Shown piece after piece: positions 2,988 to 54,489 of a stretch of DNA of 64,000 bases. The first letter of the stretch is position 1. Each line of letters opens with the position of its first letter. The notes below the pieces were generated by a model, which saw only the letters and a list, made by a program, of their open reading frames with translations, did no database searches and had not been told where the DNA came from. This DNA comes from an uncultured Gemmatimonadales bacterium (GTDB lineage: Bacteria > Gemmatimonadota > Gemmatimonadetes > Gemmatimonadales > GWC2-71-9), in NCBI GenBank assembly GCA_963842945.1, contig CAWJIM010000019.1, positions 352,001 to 416,000 on the forward strand, in the 5' to 3' direction. Made by a program: the position numbers and the translations under genes.

Positions 2988-2998
2988 CGGCAGGACAG

Positions 2999-3478
2999 TT
3001 ACCTTCGTTCGGCAGCCCTTCGCATCGTTTGCTGATATTGCCGAATCAGGCGCTGCATTCTATCCACGTGCTGAGGAAGCTCGGATCGATCGAGCTCGGC
3101 CGATGTACCGGCACCCCCACCCAGGTCATCCAGGACCGAGTCGCCGAGGGCCCGGAAATTCCCCGAGTCGGCATATCCTGCCCGGTACAAATCGGCAATC
3201 ATGGAGTTGATCAGATCCCCAGCCATGTTCTTGTACGCCGTCAGATTGTCAGGATCCGGAGGCCGGGTTCCGTTCGCCATCAGGTTCAGCTGATTCTGCG
3301 TGGCTGGAATGAGGCGGGGGGCCTCCAGCTCAGAACCGCTATTGGTTCCCGCCACCCCATCCTCGCGGGCACTGCTATCGGAGTCTGAGGTGTAGGCGGA
3401 GGCCGAGGCGTTCCCGGCCTTTTCCCGGCTGCACGCGACTGAAAGCCCGAGGGCCAGCAAAAGAAGAGCTCGATTCAT
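2999..3478 (-). CDS. Hypothetical lipoprotein
   Basis: MNRALLLLALGLSVAC lipoprotein-type signal, preceded by a GGAG RBS. Confidence 0.7.
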   Translation of the reverse strand: MNRALLLLALGLSVACSREKAGNASASAYTSDSDSSAREDGVAGTNSGSELEAPRLIPATQNQLNLMANGTRPPDPDNLTAYKNMAGDLINSMIADLYRAGYADSGNFRALGDSVLDDLGGGAGTSAELDRSELPQHVDRMQRLIRQYQQTMRRAAERR

Positions 3479-3536
3479 GTGCGCTCCTGACTGAGTGGCG
3501 GACGTTCCTGCAATCAAGGGTCGAAACCGGCGTGAC

Positions 3537-4464
3537 TCAGTGTCCCGGGTCACCCGGTGTGCGAGGCGACTGGAGCGGTGAGATCAGACTCGTCCGGTTC
3601 AGGATCACCATGGCGTCCACCGCGCTTCGCAACGCGAATCTCGAGGGCCAGAACTCCAGCCGGAAACCTTCCTGCTCGACGTCATAGAGCGGCTCGCGGA
3701 CCTGGTCAGTGGTGGAATCGAGTACCACCCCGAAGTTGCGCCCAGCCTCTTCGGAAGACAATCGATCGAACATGCGGGTGGCAGGGTTGGCGCCCGCCTG
3801 TCGCGCATCGGTCAGGATGGTGTACACCGAAGTCCCGGCCTCGGCCAGGTAGCCGGCAAACCAGTGGTCGAAGCGATCGTGCACCCTCCCCAGCGCAACC
3901 TGTCCTCCCACCTGCTTGAGACCATGATACCCCCCCATGAAGATCAACACCCGCCAGGCAGGATGCTCCTGAAGGGTTTTGCGGAATGCTGCGGCCATCC
4001 AGACGTCACGGTTGGCGAAGCCCCCCGTAGCCATGTGTTGGGTCAGGGGAGCAATGGGCCAGCCGCGCAGGTCGGCCGCGAGAATTCGGATGGGGTGGCC
4101 CGGGTGCTCGCGGTTCCAGCGATACACACGCGCGATAAATCGAGAGGTACTCGGCGCTGACTCCCCAGTGCGCCCGAAGCGTGCGGGGATGGTCCAGAAG
4201 GACGCTGATATCTTCGGGCTGGGAGGCGAGATACTTATCGACCCACTCCTGCTGTTCCGACGCAACTTCGAGCGCCAGCAAGTCTATAGCCTGGTCCTCC
4301 CGCTGCGAGGCGATGAGTTCGGTAACCAGGAGCTTCGGCTCTGCCAGAGGATGAATGTCGCCCAGGAATACGACCTGGTGGTCGCGCACCGCGGACTGCA
4401 GGAGTCGAAGCGGCTCCAGCGGGGTGCCGAGCCACGAGAGTATGGAAACCAGCAGGACGAACAT
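3537..4464 (-). CDS. ChaN/EreA/TIKI-like superfamily exported protein (frameshift near 4130)
   Basis: VVFLGDIH and LALE in the N-terminal frame. NRDVWMA and LIFMGGYH in the C-terminal frame. Confidence 0.55.
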
Positions 4465-10496: not shown

Positions 10497-10749
10497 GGAG
10501 TTCCTGTGCTGGGGCTATGACGGCCAAGGGAGGCGTCGAGTCGGAGAAATATAGTCGGGCATGAGGCCGGGCAGCAACGCCGCGGTACCGGGGAAAGCTG
10601 GTCTGCAATAAGGACTTAGACGCCGGGCCGGGGCTACTCTTTGCTCGGACCGGGTTAAGCTGAACGGACTTCCGCCCGATACTTCGCTCGATACTTCCAA
10701 GTACAGCTTCTCTCGACCCCTGTGGCCGCCGGCCCAAGGATTCTCGCAT

Positions 10750-11433
10750 ATGGCTAGATGCTCGATGCTGCTTCTGACTCTCCTCCTGATGGCTCCTCCC
10801 GTTCTGGGGGCTCAAAGCAAGGGCGGAGGCACCGCGCCGAGCGGCTTCGACAGCTTCATCATGCTGGTACCGCCGCGGGATACGGGCAGCATCAAAAAGC
10901 AGATCCGTGTGACCACTGCCGCCATCCAGGCGGCAGAAAAGGCTCGGCAGCAGGCGGAGACCATGCGGCTCGGCGCCACCTCCAGGATCGAGTTCAAGAA
11001 GGTCGAGATCGTCCGGATCAAGGACCGCATCAATGTGGCCAAGAAGGAGAAGCGCGAGGCGGACCGGGTTGGACTCGAGGCAGAGCGGAAAGCGGCTGAG
11101 CGGGAGATCGAGCTGTTGAAGCGGCGCGAGGAGCTGCGGGAGGCAGAAACCGAGCTTGAGAGCAAGCGGGCCGAGTTCGCCAACCTGAACAAAAACGCCT
11201 TGGAGCTGGAGCTCCAGTTAGCGACGCGTCGTGCCGGACGGCTCCGGGCGCCCGTTGGGGGCACCGGGGGAGCCAGCCTGGATCGGGTGATCGGGGAGTT
11301 GGAGAAGCAGACCCTCGACGCCCAGCGGGCCCAGGCCGCCGTCAGTATCGAGGTGTCCGATCAGGAAATCCGGGTGCTCGACAGCCGCCTGGAGCTGCTC
11401 GATGCGCAGCAAAGAGTCTTGGGAGGAAAGTGA
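10750..11433 (+). CDS. Exported coiled-coil hypothetical protein
   Basis: Hydrophobic signal-like N-terminus and long E/K/R/A-rich helical stretches. Confidence 0.65.
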   Translation: MARCSMLLLTLLLMAPPVLGAQSKGGGTAPSGFDSFIMLVPPRDTGSIKKQIRVTTAAIQAAEKARQQAETMRLGATSRIEFKKVEIVRIKDRINVAKKEKREADRVGLEAERKAAEREIELLKRREELREAETELESKRAEFANLNKNALELELQLATRRAGRLRAPVGGTGGASLDRVIGELEKQTLDAQRAQAAVSIEVSDQEIRVLDSRLELLDAQQRVLGGK

Positions 11434-41251: not shown

Positions 41252-42355
41252 TTGGCAGTTCGGATCGGACTCGCCTTTAATCTCAAACCCGAGGCGCCGG
41301 CTAACCCAGCCGGGGCGAACTCCGAATCCCCTTCGTCTGACGAGCCTCCCAGTCGGGCCCTCCGCCCAGACCTCTCTCAACCAGATCTCTACGCCGAGTG
41401 GGACGAGCCCGCCACCATCAACGCGGTGGAGCGGGCGCTCAGCACTGTGGGCCAGGTCTACCGCCTCGAGGCCAACAGCAGCTTCCCCGCTCGGCTCGCG
41501 CTGCTCCGTCCCGATTTCGTCTTCAACATCGCCGAAGGCCTCTACGGACCGAGCCGCGAGGCGCACGTGCCTGCAATCTGCGAGTTTCTCGGGATCCCGT
41601 ATCACGCCTCTGATCCGCTCACCTGCGGTCTCGCGCTTCACAAGGGTCGAGCCAAGGAGATCCTCTCCTATCACGGCGTCCCCACCGCGCCTTTCATGGT
41701 GGCCCGATCGCCGGCCGATGCCCGGCGAGTGACTCTCCCCTTTCCGCTCTTCGTCAAGCCGGCCTTCGAGGGGTCCGGCAAGGGTGTCACGACTCGGAGT
41801 CTCTGTAAGAACCGCTCGCAGCTGGTGCGGCAGGTCTCTCATCTGCTGGCTACCTACGCCGAGCCGGTGATCATCGAGACCTATCTGCCGGGCCAGGAGT
41901 TCACCGTCGCCATCCTCGGCAACGGCGAGGAAGCGCGCTGTATGCCGATCATCGGCATGCGTTTTGATATGCTGCCCAAGGGAGCGCCACCGATTTACGG
42001 CTATGAGGCAAAGTGGATCTGGGATACTCCGAGCAATCCCCTGGAGATCTACGAGTGCCCGGCCCGCATCTCCGAGAGTCTCGCCCAAGAAATTCGGGCG
42101 GCCGCGCTCGGAGCGTACCACGCCCTGGAATGCCGCGACTGGTGCCGCGTCGATATACGCTGCGACGCGGATGGTCGCCCGATGGTCGTCGAGCTCAACC
42201 CGTTGCCGGGCGTTTTGCCCGACCCGCGGGACCATTCCTGCTTCCCCAAGGCCGCTGCTGCGGCCGGAATGGGCTACGACGATCTGATCCGCGCTGTCGC
42301 CGACGTTGCCTGGCGGCGGATCAGCGGTCGTTCACTCCTGGCGGAGGTGGCCTGA
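41252..42355 (+). CDS. D-Ala-D-Ala ligase-like ATP-grasp enzyme 1
   Basis: FNIAEG, VKPAFEGSGKG, ETYLPGQEFTV, RVDIR and ELNPLPG. Lacks the canonical Ddl GGxSxEH N-terminal motif. Confidence 0.88.
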   Translation: MAVRIGLAFNLKPEAPANPAGANSESPSSDEPPSRALRPDLSQPDLYAEWDEPATINAVERALSTVGQVYRLEANSSFPARLALLRPDFVFNIAEGLYGPSREAHVPAICEFLGIPYHASDPLTCGLALHKGRAKEILSYHGVPTAPFMVARSPADARRVTLPFPLFVKPAFEGSGKGVTTRSLCKNRSQLVRQVSHLLATYAEPVIIETYLPGQEFTVAILGNGEEARCMPIIGMRFDMLPKGAPPIYGYEAKWIWDTPSNPLEIYECPARISESLAQEIRAAALGAYHALECRDWCRVDIRCDADGRPMVVELNPLPGVLPDPRDHSCFPKAAAAAGMGYDDLIRAVADVAWRRISGRSLLAEVA

Positions 42356-43365
42356 TGAAAGTCGCGATCCTCTTCGATGCCGGTAGCGAAGAGTGGAGTC
42401 CCCAGGACGTGGCCGCGGTGGTGGCCAATGTCCACGAGGTGCGCGATGTGCTCCGGCGGCGGGGGCACGAGGTGGAGCTCCTGCCCGTCCGGTACGGCGA
42501 TTTCCGCTGGCTCTCCCGGGTACGGCGCTCCGATCTGGTCTTCAATCTCTGCGAGGGCATCAACGGGCATGCCCGGTTCGAGGATCTGGTCGTGGGCACC
42601 CTCGAGCTGACCGGCGTCCCCTTCACCGGGTGCCTGGCCTGGCCCACCACGGTCTGCCATCGCAAGCACGTGGCCAATACCCTGCTCTCGTCGGCTGGTG
42701 TGCCGGTGCCGGCCTTCACCCTGGCCCAGGCCAACAAGGGACCGGCCGAGTTCCCCCTTCCTGCCATCGTGAAGCCGGCCGCCGAAGACGCCAGCGTCGG
42801 CATCGACAACAGTGCCGTGTGCACCAGCAAGCGTGCCCTCAAGCGGAGGGTCGCCCAGATGCTGGAGCAGTTCGAGGAGGTCGTCATCCAGGAATACGTC
42901 GCCGGACGCGAATTCAACGTCGGCTTCGTGGGCAAGCGGATGCTGCCCATCGCCGAGATCCGGTTCGACGATCTGCCCGAGGGAACCTGGCCCATCGTGA
43001 GCTACGCGGCCAAGTGGATCCCGGGGAGCCCGGAGGATGAGGGCACCATCCCGGTCTGTCCGGCCGAGCTGGAGACGGACCTCCATCAGCGGATCTCCCA
43101 GGTAGCCCGCACGGCCTGGGAGCAGATGTCCGACGGCGAAGGCTACGGCCGCATCGATATGCGTCTGAGCGAGGACGGCCAGCCTTACGTCCTCGAGGTC
43201 AATCCTACCCCGGACCTCTCCAGCAACGCGGGCCTGGCCCGGATGGGCCGCGCCTTCGGCTGGAGCTACGACGACCTGGTCATGCAGATCGTTGACGAGG
43301 CACTCACTCGCTCGCAGAGCCATCGGGCAGCCGCGGCTCTGGTCAGCGGGGTGTCCGCCGCTTGA
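42355..43365 (+). CDS. D-Ala-D-Ala ligase-like ATP-grasp enzyme 2
   Basis: FNLCEG, VKPAAEDASVGI, QEYVAGREF, RIDMR and EVNPTP. TGATG coupling with the upstream gene. Confidence 0.88.
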   Translation: MKVAILFDAGSEEWSPQDVAAVVANVHEVRDVLRRRGHEVELLPVRYGDFRWLSRVRRSDLVFNLCEGINGHARFEDLVVGTLELTGVPFTGCLAWPTTVCHRKHVANTLLSSAGVPVPAFTLAQANKGPAEFPLPAIVKPAAEDASVGIDNSAVCTSKRALKRRVAQMLEQFEEVVIQEYVAGREFNVGFVGKRMLPIAEIRFDDLPEGTWPIVSYAAKWIPGSPEDEGTIPVCPAELETDLHQRISQVARTAWEQMSDGEGYGRIDMRLSEDGQPYVLEVNPTPDLSSNAGLARMGRAFGWSYDDLVMQIVDEALTRSQSHRAAAALVSGVSAA

Positions 43366-43862
43366 GCGGCACCATTGTCTCCCCCCATCTTCGCGATCTC
43401 ACTCAAGCCGACCGGGAGCGCATCGAGGCGATCACCCGGTCGGTGGGACTGTTCCGCGAAGATGAAATCGGGATCGCGCTCGAGGTCTTCGATGAGGCAG
43501 TGGGGGCCGGACCGGCCAACACCTATGACCTACTCGGCGCAGAGCTGGACGGCGGCCTCGTCGGCTGGATCTGCTGGGGTCCGACTCCCTGCACCCTTGG
43601 CACCTACGACCTCTACTGGATGGCGGTCGATCCCGGAGCTCAGGGCACCGGGGTCGGAACCGCGCTGCTGCGGGAGATGGAGCGGCGGCTCGTAGGAATC
43701 GCCCGGCTCATCGTCGTCGAGACCGCCGGGCGGGCGGACTATGGGGCCACCCGGGCGTTCTATCGGGCCCGGGGCTACTCGCCGGTCTCGGTCATCCCGG
43801 ACTTCTATGCGCCCGGGGACGATCAGGTGGTGTTTGTGAAAAACGTGAGCGGTGAACGGTGA
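43362..43862 (+). CDS. GNAT family N-acetyltransferase
   Basis: YDLYWMAVDPGAQGTGVGTALL and TRAFYRARGY. Confidence 0.9.
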   Translation: MSGTIVSPHLRDLTQADRERIEAITRSVGLFREDEIGIALEVFDEAVGAGPANTYDLLGAELDGGLVGWICWGPTPCTLGTYDLYWMAVDPGAQGTGVGTALLREMERRLVGIARLIVVETAGRADYGATRAFYRARGYSPVSVIPDFYAPGDDQVVFVKNVSGER

Positions 43863-43946
43863 GCGGTAAACGGTAAACGGGAGAGAGACCGGGATGAGGG
43901 CTCATCGGCCCCGTCCCGTTGACCGCTCACTGTTTACCGTTCACGC
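43845..43946. repeat. Inverted heptamer array (GTGAGCG/GTAAACG type)
   Basis: GTGAGCG GTGAACG GTGAGCG GTAAACG GTAAACG ... CGTTGAC CGCTCAC TGTTTAC CGTTCAC. Confidence 0.85.
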
Positions 43947-43959
43947 TCTTGGAGGGACT

Positions 43960-45095
43960 ATGGCGGAGACCTGGCAAGAAGTCCTCAAAAAGAACTCGAT
44001 CGCCTCGCTCGAGGCGTTGGCCCAGAAGTTCGGTCCCGAAAACTTCCCCGAGCTTGACCGTCTGCGGCAGGCGGCGGAGAACTTCGAGTTCCGGATCTCG
44101 CCGGCCATGGTCGAACTGATCAAGTCGCCCAACGACCCGATCTGGCGTCAGTACGTTCCCTCGGTCGAAGAGCTGGACGTGGTGGACGGTATGGTGGACT
44201 CGCTCAACGAGGACGCCGACAGTCCGGTTCCCAACATCACCCATCGCTACCCTGATCGGGCGCTCTTTCTGGTCTCTCCCGTCTGCGCCACCTACTGCCG
44301 CTTCTGCACTCGCCGGCGGAAGGTGGGCGACCCGGAGAAGATCCCCATGTCGCAGTTCGAGAGCGCCTTCCAGTATCTGGAGGCGCACACCGAGATCCGC
44401 GACGTCATCATGTCGGGGGGCGATCCGCTGCTGCTCAACGACCGGCGGCTCGAGGCCATCCTCACCCGGCTCAGGGCCATTCCCCATCTCCAGATCATCC
44501 GGATCGGGAGCCGGATTCCCTGTCATCTGCCGGAGCGGATCACGCCCGAGCTCTGCGCCATGCTCAAGCGGTTCCACCCGCTCTTCATCAATACTCACTT
44601 CAACCATCCCGACGAGCTGACCCCAGCCGCGGTAGCGGGCTTGGGCCGGCTGGCCGATGCCGGCATCCCGCTGGGCTGCCAGACGGTGCTGCTGAAGGGC
44701 GTGAACGACACTCCCGCCGTCATGATGGAGCTGATGCATCGCCTCCTGATGGCGCGGGTCCGGCCCTACTACATCTACATGGCCGACCAGGTGGCTGGGG
44801 CCGAGCACTTTCGGACGACAGTCCAGACGGGGATCGAGATCATGCGGGCTCTCCGCGGCTGGACCAGCGGCTTGGCCATCCCCTACTTCGTCATCGACGC
44901 CCCGGGCGGCGGGGGCAAGATCCCGATCCTGCCGGAATACGTCGAGAGCATGAATGAGGACGAGGTGGTGCTCAAGAACTTCCGGGGCGAGCGCTACATC
45001 TATCGTCAGCCGAGGGAAGAGGCGGGGGTCATCGAGCTGAAGAAGCCCCGGAAGCGAGCCACGAGGAGACGGAAGACCGCGTACACCACGGGCTA
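43960..45095 (+). CDS. kamA: KamA-family radical SAM enzyme, probable lysine 2,3-aminomutase (3' end uncertain)
   Basis: THRYPDR, CATYCRFCTRRR, SGGDPL, HFNHPDE, RPYYIYMAD and IDAPGGGGKIP. The ORF runs on to 45855 antisense to the neighbour, so the end given is approximate. Confidence 0.88.
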
Positions 45096-46679
45096 CCTCG
45101 CGACCCATCTTCCATCTCCCATTCAACCCGCTGGCCCACGAATACGGATCGATCTTCACATCCGACAATCTCCGGCTGACCGCGGCGACATTGGCCAGCG
45201 AGTAGAGGAAGATCGCGGGCACGTCGGCATTCAGCGTGTCCATCGCCTCACGCCAGACTCCCTTCGCCTTTCCGGCACCCTCCTCCAGCGACGCTGCCCG
45301 TACCAGCGAGTCGAACGCGGGATTTCCATAGTGCCCGTAGTTCAGCGCCGCCCAGCCGGATCGGGTCCACTGGTCACCCAGTCCCCGGGGACTGGGCTCA
45401 TCCAGGTACGCGCCGATGTAGCTGTCGAAGCGCCCCTTGGCCAATCGCTCCTGAAATACTGGAAACTCGACCGTGGTCACCGTCGCCGGCACGCCCACCC
45501 GTCGCCAGGCCTCTTGTATGGCCACGGCAAGCTGCCGCCGGGTGGCGCTGGTAGCGGGAACCAGAATATCGATGCTCCGCAAAGACTGTCGCGCCTTGAT
45601 CCGGCCGATCTCCTGTCTTGCTCGAGCGGTGTCGAACGGCAGTGGCGAATCCCGTCGTCCCAGATCCAAAGCAACTGTGACATCGGTCCCGGTGGCGGCT
45701 TGGTTCCCTCCCCAAAGAGCGCCGTGGCCAGCGTCCGGCGGTCCACCGCCTGGGCCAGGGCCTGGCGCAGCTGCCGGTTCCCCAGATGCGGATGGGCCCG
45801 ACCTCTGGCGTCGGCAACGTTGAATGCCAGGAACCCGTACACGCCGGCCGGGTAGGTGATCAGCCGGAAGCTGGAGTCGCGAGCCACCCGCGCTGTGCGC
45901 TCTTTCGAGCCCACCGTCTCCATCAGGTCAGCCTGATGAGCCAACAGCAGATTGAGCGCAGCGTCGGGGTCAGGCGCGAACCGCCAGATGGCCCGGCGAA
46001 TCGAAGGCTTCTCGCCGGTCCACGCCGTATCCGCCGCAAGCGTCAGGAAGCTGCCGCGCCCCCAGTTCTGAATCCGGTAGGGCCCACTACCGACCAGATG
46101 TGAGAGGCTGGTGTCGGCCTCCCAACGCTTCCGCGGGATCGAGTCCCAGACATGCTTCGGCAAGACCCTGACATGGTAGGTGGCGTCGTACAGCTGCTCC
46201 GGTGAGCGCTCGCTGAACCCCACCCGCACTGTCATGGAGTCCTCCGCGGTCGCAGTGACCTTGCCGGCCAAATAGCTCTGGGCTCCCGACGCCAGCGTCG
46301 AGTCGCTGAAGACGTCGAACGAGAAGACCACGTCCTCCGCCAGCACCGGCCGACCGTCCTGCCAGCGGGCGTTCGGCCGGAGACGAAACCGCCAGTTCAG
46401 GGAGTCGACTCGCTCCCAGCGCTCGGCCAGCCCCGGCCGGTAGGCGCTCTGGTCAACCGGCGAAGCGCCAGGCGACAGGTAGGCCAGCCGCTCGTAGATC
46501 TGATCGCTGATGTCGCGGGCCACGGTTTCACTCACCAGCGGAGGGATGAGCGTCGAAGGCTCACCAGTCGCGGCAATGACTACCGTCGAACACTCGGGGC
46601 AATCCTTTCCCCGCTCTCCGCAGCTCGCCAGCCATCCGCCGAGCCATAGTAGAAGTGTTGTCCGGAGCGCTGACCTCAT
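45093..46679 (-). CDS. Peptide/nickel ABC transporter substrate-binding lipoprotein, family 5 (frameshift near 45650, 3' end uncertain)
   Basis: LASC lipobox, PGLAERW, LRPNARWQDG, EDVVFSF, VGSGPY, LRQALAQAVDR, NYGHYGNPAFD and DVPAIFLY. Confidence 0.88.
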
Positions 46680-46859
46680 TGAGTGCCTCATGGAAGGATG
46701 AAAAGCCGATCGCCCCACCCGGAACAGCTCAAGCTCAGGTCGGAGAATACAGCAACATATAACTTTGGCTCAAAGGGCATGCCCGTGCAGCCACTGTGCG
46801 CTTGTGCTCGCCCTGGTGGGTGGGCTCTGCAGCGATGCAAGGGGAAGGACCTGCGGGGA

Positions 46860-48473
46860 CTAGGCCGCGGCGGACATCCTGCCGATCGACCGAAGGAAAG
46901 CCTCGAAGATGTCGGGCCGCCACCAGCTACGGCATTCCTGCATCCGGCCGAGCGCGTCGGCCACGGTCAGCGCGCCGCGATAGCTCCGGCTGGTGGTCAG
47001 CGCGTCGAACACGTCCACGATGCAGATGATCTGGGCATTGACCGGGATCTCGTCGCCCTTGAGCCGGTCGGGGTATCCCGTCCCGTCGTACTTCTCGTGG
47101 TGCCAGCGAATGATCGGCTTGATGTCCCAGGGAAATTCCACCGTCGCGAGCAGCTCGAGCCCCCAGACCGGGTGCATCTGAATTACCCGGAACTCCTCCG
47201 GCGTGAGCGAGCCCGGCTTGTTGAGGACCTCGTGCGGCACCCGGACCTTGCCCAGATCGTGCAGATACGCGCCGATCCGGATGGTGGTCTGCTGCTGCTC
47301 GTCCAGCCCCAGCTCGCGGGCCACGCCAAGGGCATAATCGGCTACCCGCTCGCAGTGACCGAAGGTGTAGCTGTCCGACGATTCAATTGATTGACCCCAC
47401 TCGCGAACCACCGCGAAGTAGGTCTCTTCCAGCTTGAGCACTTTGGTCGAGACGTCCACCAGGTCCACCCGAGCGTCGAGCCGCCCGAACAGCCGGTGCG
47501 CCGCGTTCAGCAGCTTCAGCGCCTCCTGGTTCCGCCCCATGCTCTGATAAAGCAGGGCCAATTCCCGAGACGCTTCCGCCTCGCTCAGGATCGAGCCGGT
47601 GCTCACCGCCAGATCCACCGCCGAGCGGAGCCGGGACTCGGCCAGCGCATGCCGTCCGGTTTCCCGGTACACTCGCCCGATCAGCTTGTAGGCATCAGCC
47701 TTGTCCAGCCGGGAGCCCACCTGATCGAAGATGCCGAGCGCGGCCTCCGCATTCTGCCGGGCCTGCTCGTAATGTTGGCGAGCCAGGTAGACCTCGGCGT
47801 GGTTCAGCAGCCCCAACCCCTGGAGGTGGATGTCGCCGATCGACTTGGCCATGTCCAGGCTGCGGCGGAAGTAACCGTCGGCGTCGTCCCACAGCTCGCG
47901 GTCGGCGCTCACCATGCCGAGGTTGTGATAGGCAATGGCGCAGCCGCGGTCGTCGGCGATGCTCTCGAAGGCGCCCAGTGAGCGCTGGTAGTGAGCCAGG
48001 GCTTCGGCCAGAGCACCCTGGATGTTGGCCAGAATGCCCAGGTTCTGCTCGGTCCGTCCCCGGAGCTCGGCGCTGGCTCCGCCCAGCTCCAGTGCCCGGT
48101 AGAACTTCTCCCTTGCCTGCTCGATGGCGCCGGCCTCGAAGTCGAACCCGGCGAGCGCATTGAGGGCTTCGGCGGCCAGCACCGAATCGCCCATGAGCAG
48201 GCCGGTCTCGTAGCTCTTCTGGCAAAGCGAGCGGGCCCGATCGCCTTCATTGCGGTGATGGTGAACCACTCCCAGCCGGCGCAGCGCCTCGGCCAGCACC
48301 CCACGCTCGCCGGTGCGTTCGGCCGCCTCGATCGCGGCGGTGTAACGCTGCACCGCCTCGGTCATGGCGCCGGCGCGCTCGTGGGCCCGGGCCAGCTGCA
48401 GGAGCTCGGCGGCGGAGGTCAGCTCCGCCGATGGCTTCAGCTTGGGGGGGATGCGCTCGCCCGGGCTCTTCAT
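46860..48473 (-). CDS. TPR + HD-GYP cyclic di-nucleotide phosphodiesterase
   Basis: About 8 TPR-like repeats, then TFGHCERV, LHDLGK, HHEKYDGTGYP and DVFDALT. Confidence 0.92.
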   Translation of the reverse strand: MKSPGERIPPKLKPSAELTSAAELLQLARAHERAGAMTEAVQRYTAAIEAAERTGERGVLAEALRRLGVVHHHRNEGDRARSLCQKSYETGLLMGDSVLAAEALNALAGFDFEAGAIEQAREKFYRALELGGASAELRGRTEQNLGILANIQGALAEALAHYQRSLGAFESIADDRGCAIAYHNLGMVSADRELWDDADGYFRRSLDMAKSIGDIHLQGLGLLNHAEVYLARQHYEQARQNAEAALGIFDQVGSRLDKADAYKLIGRVYRETGRHALAESRLRSAVDLAVSTGSILSEAEASRELALLYQSMGRNQEALKLLNAAHRLFGRLDARVDLVDVSTKVLKLEETYFAVVREWGQSIESSDSYTFGHCERVADYALGVARELGLDEQQQTTIRIGAYLHDLGKVRVPHEVLNKPGSLTPEEFRVIQMHPVWGLELLATVEFPWDIKPIIRWHHEKYDGTGYPDRLKGDEIPVNAQIICIVDVFDALTTSRSYRGALTVADALGRMQECRSWWRPDIFEAFLRSIGRMSAAA

Positions 48474-48565
48474 CAGTAGGACACCGCGTAACGGGAAATG
48501 TGGTGGATCAGGCTACCCGCTTATAGTGTCGGACGTTGTCGCAATTCTTGTAGCTCTAGCTGACG
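48473..48565 (-). pseudogene. Degenerate remnant of a third ZU5-like gene (SYKNC...SRYAVSY*)
   Basis: The minus strand reads AGC TAC AAG AAT TGC (SYKNC) and TCC CGT TAC GCG GTG TCC TAC TGA (SRYAVSY*). These match YENC and SRYAVAY* of the two upstream paralogs. Confidence 0.75.
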
Positions 48566-48571
48566 TTCCAG

Positions 48572-49636
48572 CTACGCAAGACTCTCCTCCACCTGGTTGA
48601 TCCGGGTAGCGACATCCACCAGATCGCGCCGGGCATCCAGCCGGCCAAACAGGGTACGGGCAATGTTCAGATAGGCCAGCGCCTCCTGCCCTCGGCCCAT
48701 GGCCTGATAAAGCAACGCCATTTCCCGCGCCACCTCCGCCTCGGTCAGGATGGAGCCGGTGCTGGCCGCCAGCTCCATGGCGCTCCGGAGCCGCGACTCC
48801 GCCAGGGGGTAGCGGCCGGTCTCTCGATAGGTTCGGCCGATCACTCGGTACGCGTCGGCCTTGTCGATCTGGCTGCCCAGCTGATCGAAGATCCCCAGGG
48901 CCGACTCGGCGCTATGCCGCGCCTGGTCGTAGTCCTGCCGGGCCAGGTGGACCTCGGCGTAATTCAGCAGCCCCAGGGCTTCCAGATGGAGGTCGCCGAG
49001 CGCCCGGGCGATTCCCAGGCAGAGCCGGAAGTAGCGGTCGGCATCGTCCCACCGCTCGCAGTCAGCACTCACCATCCCGAGGTTGTGATAGGCGATCGCG
49101 CAGCCACGGTCGTCCCCAATGCTCTCGAATGAGAGGAGGGACTGGCGATAATGCGCGATTGCCTCGTCCGGGTCGCCCTGGACGTTGGCCAGGATGCCGA
49201 GGTTCTGCTCAGCCCGTCCTCGGAGATGGGCGCTCGCTCCGCCCAGCTGCAGGGCCTCCTGGAACTTCTCCTTGGCCGAGTGCATGGACCCGCTCTCCAG
49301 ATCGAACCCGGCGAGCGCGTTCAAGGCCTCGGCCGCCAGCACCGGGTCGCCCAGATCCACCGCGATCTTGTGGCTTCGCTCGCACATCTGTCGGGCCAGA
49401 ACCGGCTGGCTCCGACGGTGATGCACGATCCCCGAGCGGCGCAACGACTCGGCCACGATGGCCCGTTCACTGGCCCGTTCGGCGGCCTCGACCGCCGCGG
49501 TGTAGCACTGCAGAGCCTCGGCCATGCAGCCGCCCAGCTCGTGGGCCCGTCCTTCCCGAAGGAATTCCGCGGCGCGAGTGGACCCCTTGTCCTCGGTCCA
49601 CCGGGCCAGCGGGAACGATCGCAGTCTGTTTCTCAC
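48572..49636 (-). CDS. Stand-alone TPR protein, paralog of the TPR region of the HD-GYP protein
   Basis: Shares AAEALNALAGFD, EQNLGILAN, DDRGCAIAYHNLGMVSAD and FGRLDAR with 46860..48473, but ends before the HD-GYP domain. Confidence 0.9.
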   Translation of the reverse strand: MRNRLRSFPLARWTEDKGSTRAAEFLREGRAHELGGCMAEALQCYTAAVEAAERASERAIVAESLRRSGIVHHRRSQPVLARQMCERSHKIAVDLGDPVLAAEALNALAGFDLESGSMHSAKEKFQEALQLGGASAHLRGRAEQNLGILANVQGDPDEAIAHYRQSLLSFESIGDDRGCAIAYHNLGMVSADCERWDDADRYFRLCLGIARALGDLHLEALGLLNYAEVHLARQDYDQARHSAESALGIFDQLGSQIDKADAYRVIGRTYRETGRYPLAESRLRSAMELAASTGSILTEAEVAREMALLYQAMGRGQEALAYLNIARTLFGRLDARRDLVDVATRINQVEESLA

Positions 49637-49638
49637 GT

Positions 49639-50183
49639 TCAGTAGGCCACCGCGTAACGAGAGAAATGCTCGATCGGGCTGGTGACGTACTCGTACTTTG
49701 GGTAGTCCAGCGAGAACAACGGCTGGAGAATCGAGAGCCCCTCGCTGGTGTAGACGATGCCCTTCGGGCCGGCCACCGCGGCGCAGTTCTCGTAGCTCAT
49801 CCTGAGCTCGGCCGGCCGGGCAAACTTCAGCCCCTCAGGACTGAAGCGCACCGAATTGACCGGGCCGGTGATCTGCTCCGCCACAATCTTCACGTCCCTC
49901 GACAGCGCCCCGGCAGGAATGCGCAGGACGTGCTTTCCGACCTGTACCTCACCGCCTTTGCGCCCCACTACCTCGCTGCGGACGAGATACTTCTGCGGGC
50001 TGCAGGCGAGCAGTACATCGGCTGCCCCCTGAGGGACCAGGCCCGTCTTGGAGAAGGAAGAGGTGATTGCTCATTCGAGACAGTTGATGGTCCGGTCGGC
50101 TCGAAGTCACCGGTGGTACAGCTCACCGCCACGCTCAGCCCGAGTATCAGGCCGAGCAGTGGCCGGATCCGCATTGATCTCAT
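49639..50183 (-). CDS. ZU5-like domain lipoprotein B (frameshift near 50060)
   Basis: Signal LGLSVAVSC. The shifted frame reads DVLLACSPQKY...GRKGGEVQVGKHVLRIPAGAL...FSPEGLKFARPAELRMSYENC...IEHFSRYAVAY*. Confidence 0.75.
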
Positions 50184-50197
50184 CGCGCCGTCCTGGG

Positions 50198-50794
50198 TTA
50201 GTAGGCCACCGCGTAGCGGGAGAAATGGTCGATTGGAGCACTGACGGTACGCGACCGGAACAGGTCGAGCGACCGCAAGACCTCCAGGACTTTGAGCTGC
50301 TCGTCGGTGTAGACGATCTTTTTCTGTAGCAGCACCAGCGCGCAGTTCTCGTAGTTCATCGTGAGTACCGCAGGCTTCTGGAACTGCAGGCCCTCAGGGC
50401 CGAAGCGGACCGAGTTGGTCTTCCCGGGGACTTGTTCCGCGGTGATCCTTACCCGCTCGGTCAGGGCACCGCGGGGAATGAAGAGCGAGTTCCTGCCCAC
50501 GGTGATGAGCCCGCCCTCGGGACCGATCGTTTCGCTGTCGCTGTCGTAGGGCAGGGCAGAACAGGTGAGCAGGTCGGTCACCGAGCCCACCGTCCCCACC
50601 ACCGTGTTGGTCAAATCGCCTACGGTGTTGGTGAGGCCACCGGTGAGATCCCCGATCAGGCCGAACTGAGGCTGCGGCTGATCCGACTCCACGAGCGGAG
50701 CCTCGGTTAGCGCCGTATCGCTCGAGGTACAACTCACCCCGGCGAAGAGCAGCAGAGAGAATCCGATGACGGAGAGTCTGCGAGTCCAGCTCAT
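50198..50794 (-). CDS. ZU5-like domain lipoprotein A
   Basis: GGAG RBS and signal LLLFAGVSC, then GPEGGLITVGRNSLFIPRGAL...FGPEGLQFQKPAVLTMNYENC...IDHFSRYAVAY*. Confidence 0.8.
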   Translation of the reverse strand: MSWTRRLSVIGFSLLLFAGVSCTSSDTALTEAPLVESDQPQPQFGLIGDLTGGLTNTVGDLTNTVVGTVGSVTDLLTCSALPYDSDSETIGPEGGLITVGRNSLFIPRGALTERVRITAEQVPGKTNSVRFGPEGLQFQKPAVLTMNYENCALVLLQKKIVYTDEQLKVLEVLRSLDLFRSRTVSAPIDHFSRYAVAY

Positions 50795-50960
50795 GGCGCT
50801 ACTCCAGGCTAGGGTGAAGAGCATGCGACGATACCGCGACCGCTGGGCGGCCGCCGAACGGATCGGGCGCATGGAGCCTTTCCCCTTTAACCGGGGCTGA
50901 GGCTTGACATGCGCTGCTCGTTCGGTACGCGGAACTTTAAGTCAGGCGGGCACTTAGCGG

Positions 50961-50976
50961 GCAAGGAGCATGCCCC
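50961..50976 (-). promoter_or_regulatory. Candidate sigma54 (-24/-12) promoter
   Basis: Minus strand GGGGCATGCTCCTTGC is GG-N10-GC with GGCA and TTGC cores, about 165 nt upstream of ZU5-A. Confidence 0.5.
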
Positions 50977-51196: not shown

Positions 51197-51563
51197 CTAG
51201 ACGGCGAAGCCATGACGGGCGCTCCGCAGCACGACGGCATAGACCGCCAGGTTCAGCCCGATCACCAACCCAGGCCCAGCACCAGCTGAACGTTCCGGGT
51301 CAGTCCTGAAGGGTACAGCACCGGCAGCAGGTAATGCTCGACGAATCCTCCCTGGTAGCCCTGCAGCCCGGCGCTCTCCCGCAGCCGCTTCTCCAGTGGT
51401 GTCAGCGGGCAGATCCAGCCGACCAGCTCGATGAGCGCACCATAGAGCGGCCACCGGCAGGTGCACATACGCCAGCCTTCGGCCACCGCAGCGCCAGCAG
51501 CCCGCCGAAAACGACGAAGAGGACGAAGGCAAAGTGAACGAGAACGACCAGGTCGGCGAGCAT
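51197..51563 (-). CDS. DUF2784-like membrane protein (frameshifted)
   Basis: LADLVVLVHFAFVLFVVFGG...HLP...WICPLTPLEKRLR...GGFVEHYL across frames. Confidence 0.8.
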
Positions 51564-51573
51564 CTAATAAAAA

Positions 51574-51653
51574 GCGTGAGCGGGACAAGGGCGAGCGTGA
51601 GCGGTAAGCGGGAACAACCTCACCGCTTACGCCTGTCCTAGTCCCGCTTACGC
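51574..51653. repeat. Inverted heptamer-like array downstream of the EF-G gene
   Basis: GCGTGAGCGGGAC...GCGTGAGCGGTAAGCGG / CACCGCTTACGC...GTCCCGCTTACGC. Confidence 0.7.
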
Positions 51654-53847: not shown

Positions 53848-54489
53848 TTAATGATCTGGATGATGAGGGGCGAACGAGTCGATTCCACCGGCACCGGAAC
53901 CGGCTGAGTTCTGAGCCACCGTGCTGTTATTCAGGGTAAGCGGACCATGGCTGTCAATTCCACCGCCATGCTGACTGGTAGTGTTTCCCTCGACGGTGCA
54001 CCTGGTCAGAGTCAGCGCGCCAAAGTTGCTGATGCCTCCACCGGGCCGGTCTGTCCTACCGTTACGCAGGGTCAAATTCGTCAAACTCACGACGCCCTGC
54101 TCATCTATGGTCAGAAGCCGAAACGCGGGATCGGTACCCCGACGCCGGACTGTAACGCCGCTGTTGGGACCGACGATGCTGAGGGATTTGTTGATCCTCA
54201 GGGTCCCACCCCCCGCTAACGGTCGAGCGAGCGTGATGGTACCGGTGAGACCCGGGGCAAAATTGATAGTGCTGCTTCTCGAGTCTTTGATCGCCTCACG
54301 AAGCGTACACTCCTTGGCGTTGCAGATGCCGTCCCCCGGGTCAGCCAAGCTGTTCACCACCAGAACGGCAGCAGCTGAAGCGGATTCCCGGTTATTCGAA
54401 GACGAGGCCGACGGGTCGGATAACTGGTCCTCTCCGCAAGCAGCGAGCAGGAATGGCAGCGCGATCAGGAAGGGAGAGAGTCTTAACAT
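53848..54489 (-). CDS. CSLREA-domain lipoprotein with GGGI repeats, apparently truncated
   Basis: LAAC lipobox, VVNSLADPGDGIC...CTLREAI, then GGGISN, GGGIDS and AGGIDS before an abrupt end. Confidence 0.7.
   Translation of the reverse strand: MLRLSPFLIALPFLLAACGEDQLSDPSASSSNNRESASAAAVLVVNSLADPGDGICNAKECTLREAIKDSRSSTINFAPGLTGTITLARPLAGGGTLRINKSLSIVGPNSGVTVRRRGTDPAFRLLTIDEQGVVSLTNLTLRNGRTDRPGGGISNFGALTLTRCTVEGNTTSQHGGGIDSHGPLTLNNSTVAQNSAGSGAGGIDSFAPHHPDH

Follow-up and report, generated by a model that had tools for sequence, protein, structure and literature searches.

A candidate peptide-signalling cassette of a predicted self-cleaving ZU5 lipoprotein and a TPR protein in Gemmatimonadota

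GAIN, MAIN, PIDD1 and Nup98 domains cut their own polypeptide chain by an N-O acyl shift. In bacteria, the MAIN domain described by Brogan & Rudner in a 2026 preprint is an exported, GAIN_B-related beta-sandwich that carries H-x-S/T (HFS in YfkN) in the turn before its last strand, and Edman sequencing and Ser-to-Ala mutants place the cut between the F and the S of HFS, after which the cleavage products remain associated (10.64898/2026.05.12.724683). MAIN proteins, which are enriched in Bacillota, consist of a signal peptide, large ectodomains, the MAIN domain and, at the C-terminus, an anchor to wall or membrane; that study states that signalling is not tied to the C-terminal fragment, and its main text does not contain the words lipoprotein, Gemmatimonad, TPR or ZU5 (10.64898/2026.05.12.724683). 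Bacterial ZU5 autopeptidases were predicted in polymorphic toxins by Zhang et al. 2012, who also name the HF/S motif of PIDD1; these predicted ZU5-superfamily self-processing domains of secreted proteins form the N-terminal end of giant RHS/SpvB toxins, their suggested role being to free the toxin filament, and the forms described there include no stand-alone lipoprotein, seven-residue C-terminal product or TPR partner (PMC3482391). In animals, the self-cleaving ZU5 domains of PIDD1 and the NLRP1/CARD8 FIIND, and those of ankyrin, UNC5 and ZO-1, which are not known to cleave, are cytosolic and have UPA or death-fold domains after them.

Two further systems resemble the downstream genes. The RRNPP cassettes of Firmicutes include PapR-PlcR, Phr-Rap and AimP-AimR (PMC10075063), and their precursors are short propeptides trimmed by secreted proteases. 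In Vibrio vulnificus, the RcbA/RcbB operon pairs a TPR-only protein with a c-di-GMP enzyme fused to TPRs, and the two interact via their TPR domains; the enzyme is described as a GGDEF cyclase rather than an HD-GYP protein, and no ZU5 lipoprotein is part of the operon (PMC12282931).

In this paper we describe a locus in which a ZU5 lipoprotein gene is paired with a TPR gene. Unlike MAIN proteins, to which it is likened by fold and motif, the lipoprotein has an N-terminal lipid anchor, lacks an ectodomain and belongs to Gemmatimonadota; the piece beyond its predicted cut is a free heptapeptide with which the protein ends, and the next gene typically encodes a cytoplasmic TPR protein. In contrast to the animal ZU5 proteins it is a bacterial exported lipoprotein whose chain ends with the first post-cleavage strand. 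With RRNPP cassettes the locus shares an exported precursor with a candidate C-terminal signal, an adjacent cytoplasmic TPR receptor and a proposed Opp-type import, but the precursor here is a folded 198-residue lipoprotein with a predicted built-in cutter, the receptor is an LGN-like TPR_12 solenoid whose output is HD-GYP or none, with no HTH or phosphatase domain, the host phylum is diderm, and the tail is nearly invariant rather than diversified. Compared by description, RcbA/RcbB may serve as a model of how the TPR-only and TPR-HD-GYP proteins pair. The initial annotation of this DNA knew of no description; this stands for the architecture and its TPR pairing, which were not found in print, but not for bacterial ZU5 autopeptidases, which had been predicted (PMC3482391), or for an HF/S-cutting exported domain, which has been shown (10.64898/2026.05.12.724683). 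The locus looks like an undescribed candidate peptide-signalling cassette.

Genes of the locus

The window is the whole stretch of 64,000 nucleotides analysed, and all positions refer to it. Its open reading frames give five genes at 45093-50794, and the ORF list places all five on the minus strand, in agreement with the co-orientation first proposed:

50872, minus strand: alternative upstream ATG of ZU5-A
50198-50794, minus strand: ZU5-A, intact lipoprotein ORF, 198 aa
50729-50794, minus strand: signal peptide and lipobox Cys22 of ZU5-A
50201-50227, minus strand: ZU5-A codons H190-F191-S192 and tail S192-R-Y-A-V-A-Y198
49639-50183, minus strand: ZU5-B, second lipoprotein paralogue, split over two frames
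49968-50183, minus strand: signal-peptide part of ZU5-B (domain part, 49639-50055)
49642-49668, minus strand: HFSRYAVAY end of ZU5-B
48572-49636, minus strand: TPR-only protein, 354 aa (PF13424, 1.2e-36)
49295-49297, minus strand: codon of Glu114 in the TPR-only protein
46860-48473, minus strand: TPR-HD-GYP protein, 537 aa (PF13487 HD_5, 2.7e-39; PF01966, 6.7e-23; PF13424, 2.6e-31)
46926-47387, minus strand: HD-GYP domain, residues ~363-516
~45093-46718, minus strand: SBP_bac_5 substrate-binding lipoprotein (SBP) of Opp/Dpp/Nik type (PF00496)

Alignment with the intact relatives L009 and L007 shows one base missing from ZU5-B near 50058/50059, a break known from the MAG assembly at a site where public reads have no coverage. 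The TPR-only gene starts 2 bases past the ZU5-B stop. The SBP is frame-shifted at ~45480-45670 in the assembly, so that PF00496 matches its N-terminal part at 2.5e-48 and its C-terminal part, in another frame, at 5.2e-07; NCBIfam gives Opp/Dpp/Nik matches, all of them sub-threshold.

The SBP had been counted as part of the system, a claim weakened by its loose linkage. It is absent from many cassettes, including most paralogous ones, its place and strand vary among cassettes, and its neighbours include neither permease nor ATPase genes. The source genome has a single Opp/Dpp-type ABC locus, on contig C23, and several orphan SBP_bac_5 genes.

The lipoprotein, its fold and its C-terminal tail

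ZU5-A consists of a signal peptide, the lipobox Cys22, a low-confidence Gly/Thr-rich linker and a beta-sandwich at residues ~75-198. In a 142-row family alignment Cys22, which follows a hydrophobic leader, is at least 90% conserved. Judged from these sequence features, the protein is Sec-exported and lipid-anchored, with the sandwich as its sole folded part.

The AF2 model of residues 75-198 (pLDDT ~97) is a beta-sandwich of ZU5/GAIN_B type and has no helix of four or more residues. In VIA-align it matched ankyrin ZU5 domains (Z 12.3, 11.4 and 11.1), UNC5b (9.2), the GAIN domains of CD97 (8.7), CELSR1 (8.3) and BAI3 (8.1), the FIIND of CARD8 (5.8) and NLRP1 (5.5), and Nup98 (4.7), with alignments that extend to model residue 198. 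Foldseek gave E 1e-6, and every one of its 15 matches at E <= 0.001 is a ZU5 domain. As a group, ZU5 domains are thus the best structural matches and leave a weak Pfam signal: the lipoprotein scores 18.7-19.1 bits, below the gathering cut-off of 21, and 25 of the 142 family members match at E <= 0.01. The ZU5 fold first suggested from a sequence pattern is therefore what AF2, VIA-align and Foldseek agree on. The nearest structural matches, the ZU5 domains of ankyrin, UNC5b and ZO-1, are not known to cleave. In the model HFS sits in a beta-turn between strands 183-190 and 193-197, and the tail is predicted to be a buried, regular strand. Adhesion GPCR GAIN domains likewise have their cleavage motif before the final strand, and the small and hydrophobic residue pattern of the Stachel consensus is like that of the strand after HFS. 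Unlike those receptors, the lipoprotein has no helical GAIN_A and no 7TM in cis, its strand would be untethered after the predicted cleavage, and the receptor proposed for its tail is a soluble cytoplasmic TPR protein.

The family comprises 1164 clusters at 50% identity. Its invariant or near-invariant columns in the 142-row alignment are C78, G94, G95, P107, A110, L111, P133, G135, L136, F138, C151, H190, F191 and S192. The residues of the ZU5-like pattern recognised in the initial annotation fall on such columns, and the conserved Cys pair noted there corresponds to Cys78 and Cys151, which are invariant. ZU5-A and ZU5-B were likewise correctly seen as divergent proteins with one ending: they are 49-52% identical and both have HFSRYAVAY directly before the stop, an ending found also in two further paralogues of the source genome.

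Among the 150 best cluster representatives, 134 have the His exactly nine residues from the C-terminus and the stop six residues past the Ser. Mean column identity is 0.86 over the last nine residues versus 0.56 over the remaining domain, and 0.83 for the final strand versus 0.40-0.63 for the ten other strands. In 252 members the nucleophile position is S in 234, T in 10 and C in 1, and the chain almost always closes with an aromatic residue (Y 122, W 110, F 6). The tail consensus is S-[R/x]-Y-A-[V/I]-A-[W/Y], here SRYAVAY (~828 Da by arithmetic). On these comparisons, the common HFSRYAVAY tail is a family signature beyond chance. The proposed HF/S cleavage motif holds in that H190, F191 and S192 are invariant in the 142-row alignment and lie in the turn that leads into the last strand, but in 22 of the 252 members Gly replaces His (GFS/GFT). 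These members lack the Cys pair and keep the tail, the lipobox and the TPR partner, so conservation of the tail is independent of the canonical catalytic His.

Pairing with TPR genes

Linkage was surveyed at 183 loci with 262 ZU5 ORFs, 251 of them evaluable for the next gene. That gene was TPR-HD in 117 cases, TPR in 69, a TPR gene truncated where the contig ends in 12 and another ZU5 gene in 36; the remaining 17, two source-genome paralogues included, had no TPR neighbour. A ZU5 gene is thus directly followed by a TPR gene in 198 of 251 cases, with gaps that mostly lie between -11 and +30 bases (extremes -71 and +211), and some loci carry alternating ZU5-TPR-ZU5-TPRHD arrays. A TPR gene also lay next to ZU5 in 19 of 20 extra places, among them several paralogues per genome, and came next in 75 of 80 acidic-tail ZU5 genes on metagenome contigs, 4 of the other 5 having no downstream DNA. 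Across 401 genomes, a set that contains the two unpublished genomes G057 and G182, on neither of which our claims depend, 136 had both genes, 33 ZU5 only, 15 TPR-HD only and 217 neither. The linkage to TPR and TPR-HD-GYP genes expected from the single locus is therefore conserved and close, paralogous copies included. At the core is a cassette of two genes that recurs, also in duplicate, in Gemmatimonadota, and its TPR solenoid is in most cases fused to HD-GYP. The two genes are translationally coupled, and very probably functionally coupled as well.

The translation of the TPR protein has no signal peptide. The TPR-only protein contains eight 40-residue TPR repeats and a capping helix (AF2 pLDDT 93.4, 17 helices), and the best Foldseek matches of its model are LGN/Pins TPR domains (E 1e-10), with Rap-CSF at rank 50; as modelled, it is a solenoid of peptide-groove type closest to LGN/Pins. 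Columns N106, N145 and N185 are invariant. Pfam and NCBIfam give no RRNPP family match for the TPR proteins. The TPR-HD-GYP protein begins with a TPR domain that shares 64% identity with the TPR-only protein, and its HD-GYP phosphodiesterase domain, rightly identified at the outset, is canonical by the motifs HDLGK and HHEKYDGTGYP and by the PF13487 match. HD-GYP is the sole output domain among TPR partners, many of which have no output at all.

The proposed signal and its alternatives

We give a probability of roughly 40% to the whole reading, in which the heptapeptide of a self-cleaving lipoprotein signals to TPR/HD-GYP. The exported, folded domain would cut its own F191-S192 bond by an N-O acyl shift; going by motif and fold, HFS-type members probably do cut themselves at Phe-Ser. 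SRYAVAY would then be held only non-covalently as the final strand, and since none of the studied relatives (GAIN, MAIN, FIIND and Nup98) lets go of the cut strand its release needs an additional step: unfolding, pulling or degradation of the sandwich in the envelope may set the pre-cut peptide free. A heptapeptide of this mass made in the periplasm requires an importer, plausibly of Opp/Dpp type and served by orphan family-5 binding proteins like the neighbouring SBP, although import through the SBP itself is doubtful. In the cytoplasm the peptide would sit in the TPR groove and alter HD-GYP activity and hence c-di-GMP, and the TPR-only paralogue might bind the same ligand as a buffer or partner of the enzyme. 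The nearly uniform tail points to an envelope-state or self-signalling device and not to a strain-specific quorum code, and the quorum-sensing option raised initially is accordingly disfavoured.

That the heptapeptide tail is the TPR ligand, also claimed at the outset, can be held only tentatively: co-folding leans towards it and a charge pattern does not survive correction for ancestry. Complex prediction of the TPR-only protein (TPR354) with residues 165-198 of ZU5-A, an uncut 34-residue C-terminal piece, gave an ipSAE of 0.40 against 0.02 for the best of 3 controls and the verdict 'weak support'; of 157 solved complexes 116 pass the ipSAE mark, as do 2 of 215 mismatched pairs, passes at ipSAE <=0.60 comprise only 18 of the 157 and both passing mismatches, and in the 0.40 band a pass is wrong more often than right, except where the guess had been likely from the start. 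The runs share at least 66% of contacts, with a partner pLDDT of at least 46. Where tail position 2 is Arg or Lys, 118 of 120 pairs have Glu or Asp in the TPR column of Glu114; with Asp/Glu tails (22 pairs) it is R in 7, A in 5, E in 3 and K in 2, with others making up the rest. The 3 E rows belong to double-TPR partners, and E occurs once among 59 more acidic-tail metagenome pairs. This pattern fails phylogeny control, with ~7 tail-state changes on the TPR tree and independent-pair sign tests at p 0.125 to 1, and with so few independent changes shared ancestry can explain it.

It is somewhat unlikely, but deserves weight, that the genes are linked and the tail is no ligand. The lipoprotein would be a part of the envelope, such as a binding module, adhesin or mechanical element, whose cut strand stays permanently, as it remains bound in all studied relatives (10.64898/2026.05.12.724683), and TPR-HD-GYP would merely be co-expressed, for instance in a c-di-GMP-controlled envelope programme, while the TPR senses something else. 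The non-significant covariation, the weak complex score and the TPR-only partners that lack enzymatic output fit this account, and burial of the tail as a regular strand, if the model is right, is alone enough to explain strong conservation. It leaves unexplained, however, why the stop falls exactly at the strand's final residue, why this strand is so much better conserved than the ten others, why each ZU5 paralogue comes with a separate TPR gene only a few bases downstream, and why the tail Arg goes together with an acidic residue in the TPR.

Clamping of C-terminal peptides by TPR domains is well known, with EEVD for Hop and SKL for PEX5 as recognition tags. The TPR protein might accordingly read the tail of unexported, unfolded precursor and convert a jam of Sec/lipoprotein export into c-di-GMP, with self-cleavage serving a separate periplasmic role. 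We consider this improbable: it gives no reason for His-Phe-Ser and a nucleophile confined to Ser/Thr/Cys in 230 of 252 members, precursor accumulation is purely hypothetical here, and we know of no comparable export sensor. Its appeal is that neither a release step nor an importer is needed, that it suits the Gly-for-His subfamily and the nearly fixed free C-terminal aromatic, and that the piece which passed complex prediction, if weakly, was uncut.

A last alternative, that adjacency is inherited gene order without function and the HFS end a structural quirk of lineage-specific lipoproteins, is very unlikely even though all named relatives belong to one phylum, Gemmatimonadota, are non-independent samples and, in the best 80 loci, share wider synteny (EF-G, KamA and GNAT genes), for these neighbours shift or disappear while ZU5-TPR stays paired with gaps of a few bases, paralogous pairs occupy unrelated contexts within a single genome (four in G001), the pair is jointly present or jointly missing inside one genus, and the tail is kept in a family as diverse as 1164 clusters at 50% identity.

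The Gemmatimonadota that carry these genes are soil bacteria.

A lipoprotein family with a ZU5-like fold and a nearly fixed C-terminus

The source MAG (4.3 Mb, 24 contigs, completeness 86.9%, contamination 6%) carries in the window, on contig C19, two lipoprotein genes, followed on the same strand by two genes for TPR proteins and one for a family-5 solute-binding lipoprotein.

Genes of the locus in the window
50198-50794, minus strand: ZU5-A, 198-aa lipoprotein
49639-50183, minus strand: ZU5-B, second lipoprotein, frame-broken in the assembly
48572-49636, minus strand: TPR-only protein, 354 aa
46860-48473, minus strand: TPR-HD-GYP protein, 537 aa
about 45093-46718, minus strand: SBP, family-5 solute-binding lipoprotein, frame-broken

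Fourteen bases lie between the ZU5-A stop and the ZU5-B start, and 2 bases between the ZU5-B stop and the TPR-only start. ZU5-B is one base short near 50058/50059 when compared with two intact relatives, and the SBP frame switches around 45480-45670. Because a ZU5 paralogue on contig C18 of the same genome (locus L004, 1498-2192) is likewise split between frames, assembly indels are a likely cause of these breaks; split genes are seen too in related long-contig MAGs, for example in the TPR gene of locus L006. This suggests, without settling the point, that the split genes are single-base assembly errors and not pseudogenes. Four public runs leave 49576-50163, including the ZU5-B frameshift site, uncovered, and the share of sampled words in any public run was at most 0.16.

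ZU5-A and ZU5-B are 49-52% identical and both end in HFSRYAVAY, as do two further paralogues elsewhere in the genome. In both lipoproteins the C-terminal tail is the heptapeptide SRYAVAY that follows HF, starting at Ser192 of ZU5-A. Structure was predicted by AlphaFold2 with an alignment (A1) of 142 rows, made of 140 of the 150 best representatives and the two window proteins; eight short fragments and two much longer proteins were left out. The model is an all-beta domain with pLDDT of about 97 for residues 75-198, preceded by a low-confidence linker (residues 23-74), and it places HFS in the turn that joins strand 183-190 to the final strand, 193-197. All 15 Foldseek matches with E <= 0.001 are ZU5 domains (ankyrin, UNC5b, ZO-1); Foldseek matches to solved ZU5 domains have E values from 1e-6, the best, to 1e-4 and probability 1.00. 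An independent structural search against representatives returned the ZU5 domains of ankyrin-B/ankyrin-R at Z 12.3 (rmsd 2.3, 110 aligned), 11.4 and 11.1 and of UNC5b at 9.2, the GAIN domains of CD97 (8.7), CELSR1 (8.3) and BAI3 (8.1), the FIIND of CARD8 (5.8) and NLRP1 (5.5), and the Nup98 autoproteolytic domain (4.7). The structural alignments extend to model residue 198, so the tail strand belongs to the shared fold. Pfam ZU5 (PF00791) scores the window protein at 18.7-19.1 bits (E 0.0016-0.0022), under the gathering cut-off of 21, and is reached at E <= 0.01 by 25 of the 142 relatives (best 2.1e-5). The initial annotation, which had guessed a ZU5-like domain, was therefore right at the level of fold, as judged by AlphaFold2, Foldseek and the structural search, with a Pfam sequence score below cut-off.

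The predicted beta-sandwich superposes on solved ZU5 domains, and it carries before its last strand the His-hydrophobic-Ser/Thr(/Cys) triad of self-cleaving autopeptidases, with the motif geometry, in the model, of the self-cleaving members of the superfamily. ZU5 autopeptidase domains have been predicted in bacterial polymorphic toxins, and ZU5, GPS and Nup98 domains were joined in one superfamily in the same work (Zhang et al. 2012, PMC3482391). Brogan and Rudner (10.64898/2026.05.12.724683) describe bacterial GAIN-like MAIN domains which are cut between F and S of HFS; the cut is blocked by Ser-to-Ala and rescued by Thr, and the products remain associated. By analogy with these tested bacterial domains, self-cleavage at Phe-Ser is likely in the lipoproteins. 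The architecture differs from those known. MAIN proteins run in the order signal peptide, ectodomains, MAIN and C-terminal anchor (10.64898/2026.05.12.724683), whereas ZU5-A carries an N-terminal putative lipobox, lacks any further domain and stops six residues past the Ser; unlike GAIN proper, the ZU5-A model has eleven strands and no helix of at least 4 residues, and so no GAIN_A. This is a putative cutter of the GAIN/MAIN/ZU5 type in an architecture not described for GAIN, MAIN or ZU5 systems. The words lipoprotein, Gemmatimonad, TPR and ZU5 are absent from the main text of the preprint (10.64898/2026.05.12.724683), and full-text literature searches yielded no description of the family or of the cassette (a ZU5 lipoprotein gene with its downstream TPR gene); the supplementary tables of the preprint could list members.

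The family counts 1003 proteins of similar length at E <= 0.001 (90% clusters) and, at the same threshold, 1164 50%-cluster representatives, 623 of which reach 1e-10. Present annotation calls its members hypothetical proteins and nothing more; no NCBIfam model covers the lipoproteins, and A1 used as a profile against PDB sequences hit just lipoprotein signal-peptide look-alikes (E 0.33-0.62). All named relatives are from Gemmatimonadota, the one named among ten distant representatives being Gemmatimonadaceae, and matches in the ESM Atlas were only Gemmatimonadota clusters and one set with ZU5 on 55% of its members. Common in soil Gemmatimonadota, the family extends the ZU5/GAIN fold, known from animal death-fold and adhesion-receptor signalling, by a stand-alone bacterial member. 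No longer (fused) relative of 348-2000 aa was found at E <= 1e-5 in a search whose negative outcome counts as weak evidence.

The His stands exactly nine residues before the end in 134 of the 150 best representatives; HFS lies at another distance in 12 and is absent in 4. Invariant columns of A1 are C78, G94, P133, G135, F138, C151, H190, F191 and S192, and at least 90% of the 142 rows retain the putative lipobox Cys22, which follows a positively charged N-terminus and a hydrophobic stretch. A set of 183 loci gave 252 distinct complete ORFs; of these, 212 have HFS as the triad, one each has HFT, HFC and HYS, and 22 have GFS/GFT/GLS, the nucleophile position being S in 234, T in 10 and C in 1. 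Most of the tail is nearly fixed (Y in 241 at position 3; A in 233 at position 4; V 173, I 53, L 17 at position 5; A in 228 at position 6; Y 122, W 110 at position 7), and the variable position is the second (R 162, N 19, D 14, S 12, Q 11, E 10, T 7), which can differ between paralogous cassettes of one genome; the tails of genome G001, for example, are SHYAVAW, SHYAMAW, SQYAIAW and SDYAVAY. Mean column identity is 0.86 over the last nine residues against 0.56 for the remaining domain, and the last strand is conserved at 0.83 against 0.40-0.63 for the ten others. The tail varies too little to be a quorum code specific to strains. In four ORFs it is duplicated in tandem, so that two Ser/Cys-x-Tyr units stand in succession (L144, 3477-4133; L152, 5245-5955; L133, 6079-6981; L143, 3213-3932).

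Linkage of the lipoprotein genes to genes for TPR proteins

A tail-pattern scan of one genome per species with a 22-row alignment gave 260 relatives. The best 80 of their loci are all from Gemmatimonadota, one of them (L080) from a MAG labelled Gemmatimonas aurantiaca, and where enough downstream DNA is present nearly all show a ZU5 gene followed by a TPR-HD-GYP gene on the same strand, around which the EF-G, SBP, KamA and GNAT genes shift or drop out; some loci (L023, L033, L074, L082, L085) alternate as ZU5-TPR-ZU5-TPRHD. Since these 80 loci are mostly orthologues, a search across the phylum, positive in 169 of 401 genomes, supplied 100 further places, with preference for second and third copies per genome. 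A TPR gene comes right after the ZU5 gene in 19 of the first 20, and G001 holds four separate ZU5-TPR pairs. Gaps between ZU5 and TPR genes are mostly -11 to +30 bases (range -71 to +211).

The 183 pooled loci, in which some places may be double, contain 262 ZU5 ORFs; one was cut by a contig end and 10 had less than 1500 bases downstream, so that 251 were judged. A TPR gene is next in 198 of these, and after de-duplication 178 distinct tail-TPR pairs are left.

Next gene after the ZU5 gene (251 judged)
TPR-HD-GYP: 117
TPR without HD: 69
TPR cut by contig end: 12
Another ZU5 gene: 36
None of these: 17

The 17 genes without a TPR neighbour have heterogeneous genes downstream and include the two other paralogues of the window genome. 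In an independent collection of metagenome contigs (best 80 of 512 relatives), acidic-tail ZU5 genes have a TPR gene next in 75 of 80, and four of the remaining five have less than 1200 bases downstream. Of the 401 genomes, 136 have both ZU5 and TPR-HD-GYP (E <= 1e-60), 33 have just ZU5, 15 just TPR-HD and 217 neither; both are missing from five genomes of the genus to which the window belongs. No conclusion depends on the two unpublished genomes in the set (G057, G182). As the relatives are not independent, these counts describe the linkage and do not test it. The initial observation in the window is confirmed and extends to a large family, and a repeated, translationally coupled pairing of a lipoprotein with a cytoplasmic TPR sensor is well supported, as are the fold, the cleavage-type motif and the exact C-terminal end. 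Mere synteny is a very improbable explanation of a pairing that recurs while the genes around it shift or drop out.

Partners are of three kinds: double-TPR (about 670-860 aa), TPR-only (about 330-350 aa) and TPR-HD-GYP. Fifteen TPR partners, picked from 66 without an HD match, were scanned, and none showed another output domain. In the window the HD-GYP domain matches PF13487 at 135.1 bits (cut-off 27.2; 2.7e-39) and PF01966 at 81.6 bits, and the translation contains HDLGK and HHEKYDGTGYP. The hallmark motifs of HD-GYP domains are HD and HHExxDGxGYP, and by its residues the domain is of the canonical c-di-GMP phosphodiesterase type. Both TPR proteins start without a signal peptide and without a hydrophobic stretch; given this and the canonical HD-GYP domain, they should be cytoplasmic. 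The predicted structure of TPR-only (pLDDT 93) has eight 40-residue repeats and a cap. Its closest folds are the peptide-binding TPR solenoids of LGN/Pins (E 1e-10), a shared fold which shows no function, and the list also has kinesin light chain. Asn recurs in the first helix of successive repeats, with N106, N145 and N185 invariant and N225 nearly so; in LGN, an Asn ladder of this kind holds extended peptides.

The cassette shares with RRNPP systems a gene for a precursor that is exported, side by side with one for a TPR receptor in the cytoplasm. Membership of the RRNPP family (Rap/NprR/PlcR/PrgX/AimR) was considered and rejected: Pfam and NCBIfam give only generic TPR and HD-GYP matches, and a Rap-peptide complex appears in the TPR-only fold list at rank 50. 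The cassette would work like RRNPP and is not a member of that family.

The SBP is recognised by PF00496 (N part 165.5 bits, cut-off 32.4; C part 29.6 bits, in another frame). No NCBIfam equivalog reaches its cut-off. No permease adjoins the SBP gene; a single Opp/Dpp-type ABC locus is present in the genome, on contig C23, and there are several orphan binding proteins of family 5. Of the cassettes in EF-G synteny, 43 have an SBP gene nearby in the same orientation, 14 one in the opposite orientation and 13 none; for cassettes in other contexts these numbers are 18, 8 and 27. With strand and presence so variable, the SBP was rejected as a core part and may be an accessory, so that of the five-gene system of the initial annotation the lipoprotein and TPR genes stand and the SBP drops out of the core.

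The heptapeptide as a candidate TPR ligand

The best single explanation of the cassette is that the freed heptapeptide is the ligand of the TPR protein, to which we give a probability of about 0.4. In complex prediction, TPR-only with ZU5-A residues 165-198 scored 0.40, 0.41 and 0.35 in three runs, and the highest of three controls reached 0.02; contacts agree between runs to at least 66%, the output names no individual contacts, the partner pLDDT is at least 46, and the verdict of the tool is 'weak support'. The mark is reached by 116 of 157 solved complexes and by 2 of 215 mismatched pairs, and passing scores of 0.60 or less comprise 18 of the 157 solved complexes and both passing mismatches.

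The second tail position offers an indirect view. Over 174 tail-TPR pairs the column that best tracks its charge class, itself in the top three by mutual information, is Glu114 of TPR-only, the residue at which the first helix of repeat 3 ends.

Residue at the Glu114 column by charge of tail position 2
Arg/Lys tails (120 pairs): E 117, Q 2, D 1
Asp/Glu tails (22 pairs): R 7, A 5, E 3, K 2, others 5
Asp/Glu tails, metagenome contigs (59 pairs): A 31, T 12, S 6, R 4, Q 3, E 1, L 1, N 1

Alongside Arg tails the Glu persists also in those TPR-only clades that diverge most (25-35% identity); rows with Glu and acidic tails occur among double-TPR partners, where the aligned half is ambiguous. In the 59 metagenome pairs Glu is avoided (1/59) and an Arg swap is rare (4/59), and these pairs add no independent transitions. 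The pattern is what a salt bridge would give, and is suggestive and not demonstrated. On the TPR tree there are about 7 changes of the tail basic state and 5-7 independent pairs; TPR column 492 changes the same way in 2-3 of these, the opposite way in 0-1 and is unchanged in 2-3 (p 0.125-1), and acidic tail against basic column gives p 1. Since the tree-controlled tests are non-significant, the charge pattern is given as a raw association.

Besides the uniformity of the tail and its tandem duplicates, two observations count against the peptide model. In all studied relatives the cut strand stays bound. In addition, the 22 of 252 Gly-type members keep the tail and a TPR-only partner without the His. 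This subfamily also lacks the Cys pair and retains the putative lipobox, behind a likewise charged and then hydrophobic N-terminus; its tail reads G-F-[S/T]-R-Y-A-[L/I]-A-Y, and its own TPR-only gene of about 325 aa lies next downstream (L017, 11183-12268 with 10199-11170; L026, 4008-4631 with 2998-3993; L083, 2787-3422 with 1787-2770). The pair is often found on the opposite strand just past the main cassette, and the window has no copy. The Gly-type members are either cut in some other way or show that the tail matters even when uncut. The leading rival reading, that the genes are linked and the tail is not the ligand, is in our estimate rather unlikely. That the TPR protein senses the tail of an unexported precursor we consider improbable.

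If the freed heptapeptide is the ligand, a lipid-anchored ZU5/GAIN-like domain would pre-cut its own last strand and hold the heptapeptide latent, force or damage would release it, and the freed peptide would be imported and read by the cytoplasmic TPR-HD-GYP enzyme, by which envelope state, or cell density, would be coupled to c-di-GMP. The complete chain, a protease-free peptide signal of Gemmatimonadota that is pre-cut, releasable, imported and read by TPR-HD-GYP, is tentative and somewhat doubtful. Were it true, RRNPP would have a counterpart in a diderm, and a bacterial GAIN-like 'tethered peptide' would for the first time be given a physiological role. Provided that the tail is the ligand, peptide-to-TPR signalling would not be confined to Firmicutes, and a pro-peptide could mature without any protease. 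To our knowledge few inputs to HD-GYP enzymes are known, and the finding gives a defined, synthesisable candidate ligand for one. According to the main text of Brogan and Rudner (10.64898/2026.05.12.724683), no signalling has yet been tied to the MAIN C-terminal fragment, and the physiological role of the post-cleavage peptide is posed there as a question; the present family reduces this question to a domain, a predicted seven-residue product and a dedicated cytoplasmic TPR partner.

Flanking genes and other observations

The cassette in the window is flanked upstream by an EF-G paralogue and a DUF2784 gene, and on the opposite strand by lysine-2,3-aminomutase-like radical-SAM, GNAT and ATP-grasp genes. 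The latter, an ATP-grasp (D-Ala-D-Ala-ligase-like) gene, a GNAT acetyltransferase and the aminomutase-like gene, form a row at 42355-45093 (plus strand), convergent with the SBP gene, and KamA and GNAT stay close to the cassette in most related loci. As a guess, the row may be a pathway of the beta-lysine or acetyl-beta-lysine type. The aminomutase frame is stop-free to 45855, so its 3' end may also carry an indel. The DUF2784 small membrane protein gene (51262-51588, minus strand) lies between EF-G and the cassette; its match spans only profile positions 40-98, and the 5' part may therefore be in another frame. A promoter and terminator scan gave 0 promoter-like sites and 2 terminator-like sites, the latter under the shuffle mean.

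The paralogues on contigs C21 and C18 without a TPR neighbour are flanked by small ORFs without a Pfam match and have a coiled-coil-like, Lys/Glu-rich N-terminal half. The small ORFs share the motifs HFEFRD and RLKPE.aH.YP, the arrangement is repeated (L003, 1093-1488 and 2729-2998; L004, 1129-1455 and 2738-3007; L106), and a Ser/Thr kinase gene adjoins on C21.

In the public run X20, a rhizosphere metatranscriptome, two 151-base contigs are at least 99% alike over 50610-50900, that is, the 5' part of ZU5-A and the sequence upstream, and one has an extra G after 50811. As DNA can occur in RNA libraries, this is a hint of ZU5-A expression only. Finally, 53848-54489 (minus strand) is a lipoprotein-like ORF of 213 aa without a Pfam match, with a CTLREAI motif and Gly/Asn-rich repeats that are beta-helix-like in look.
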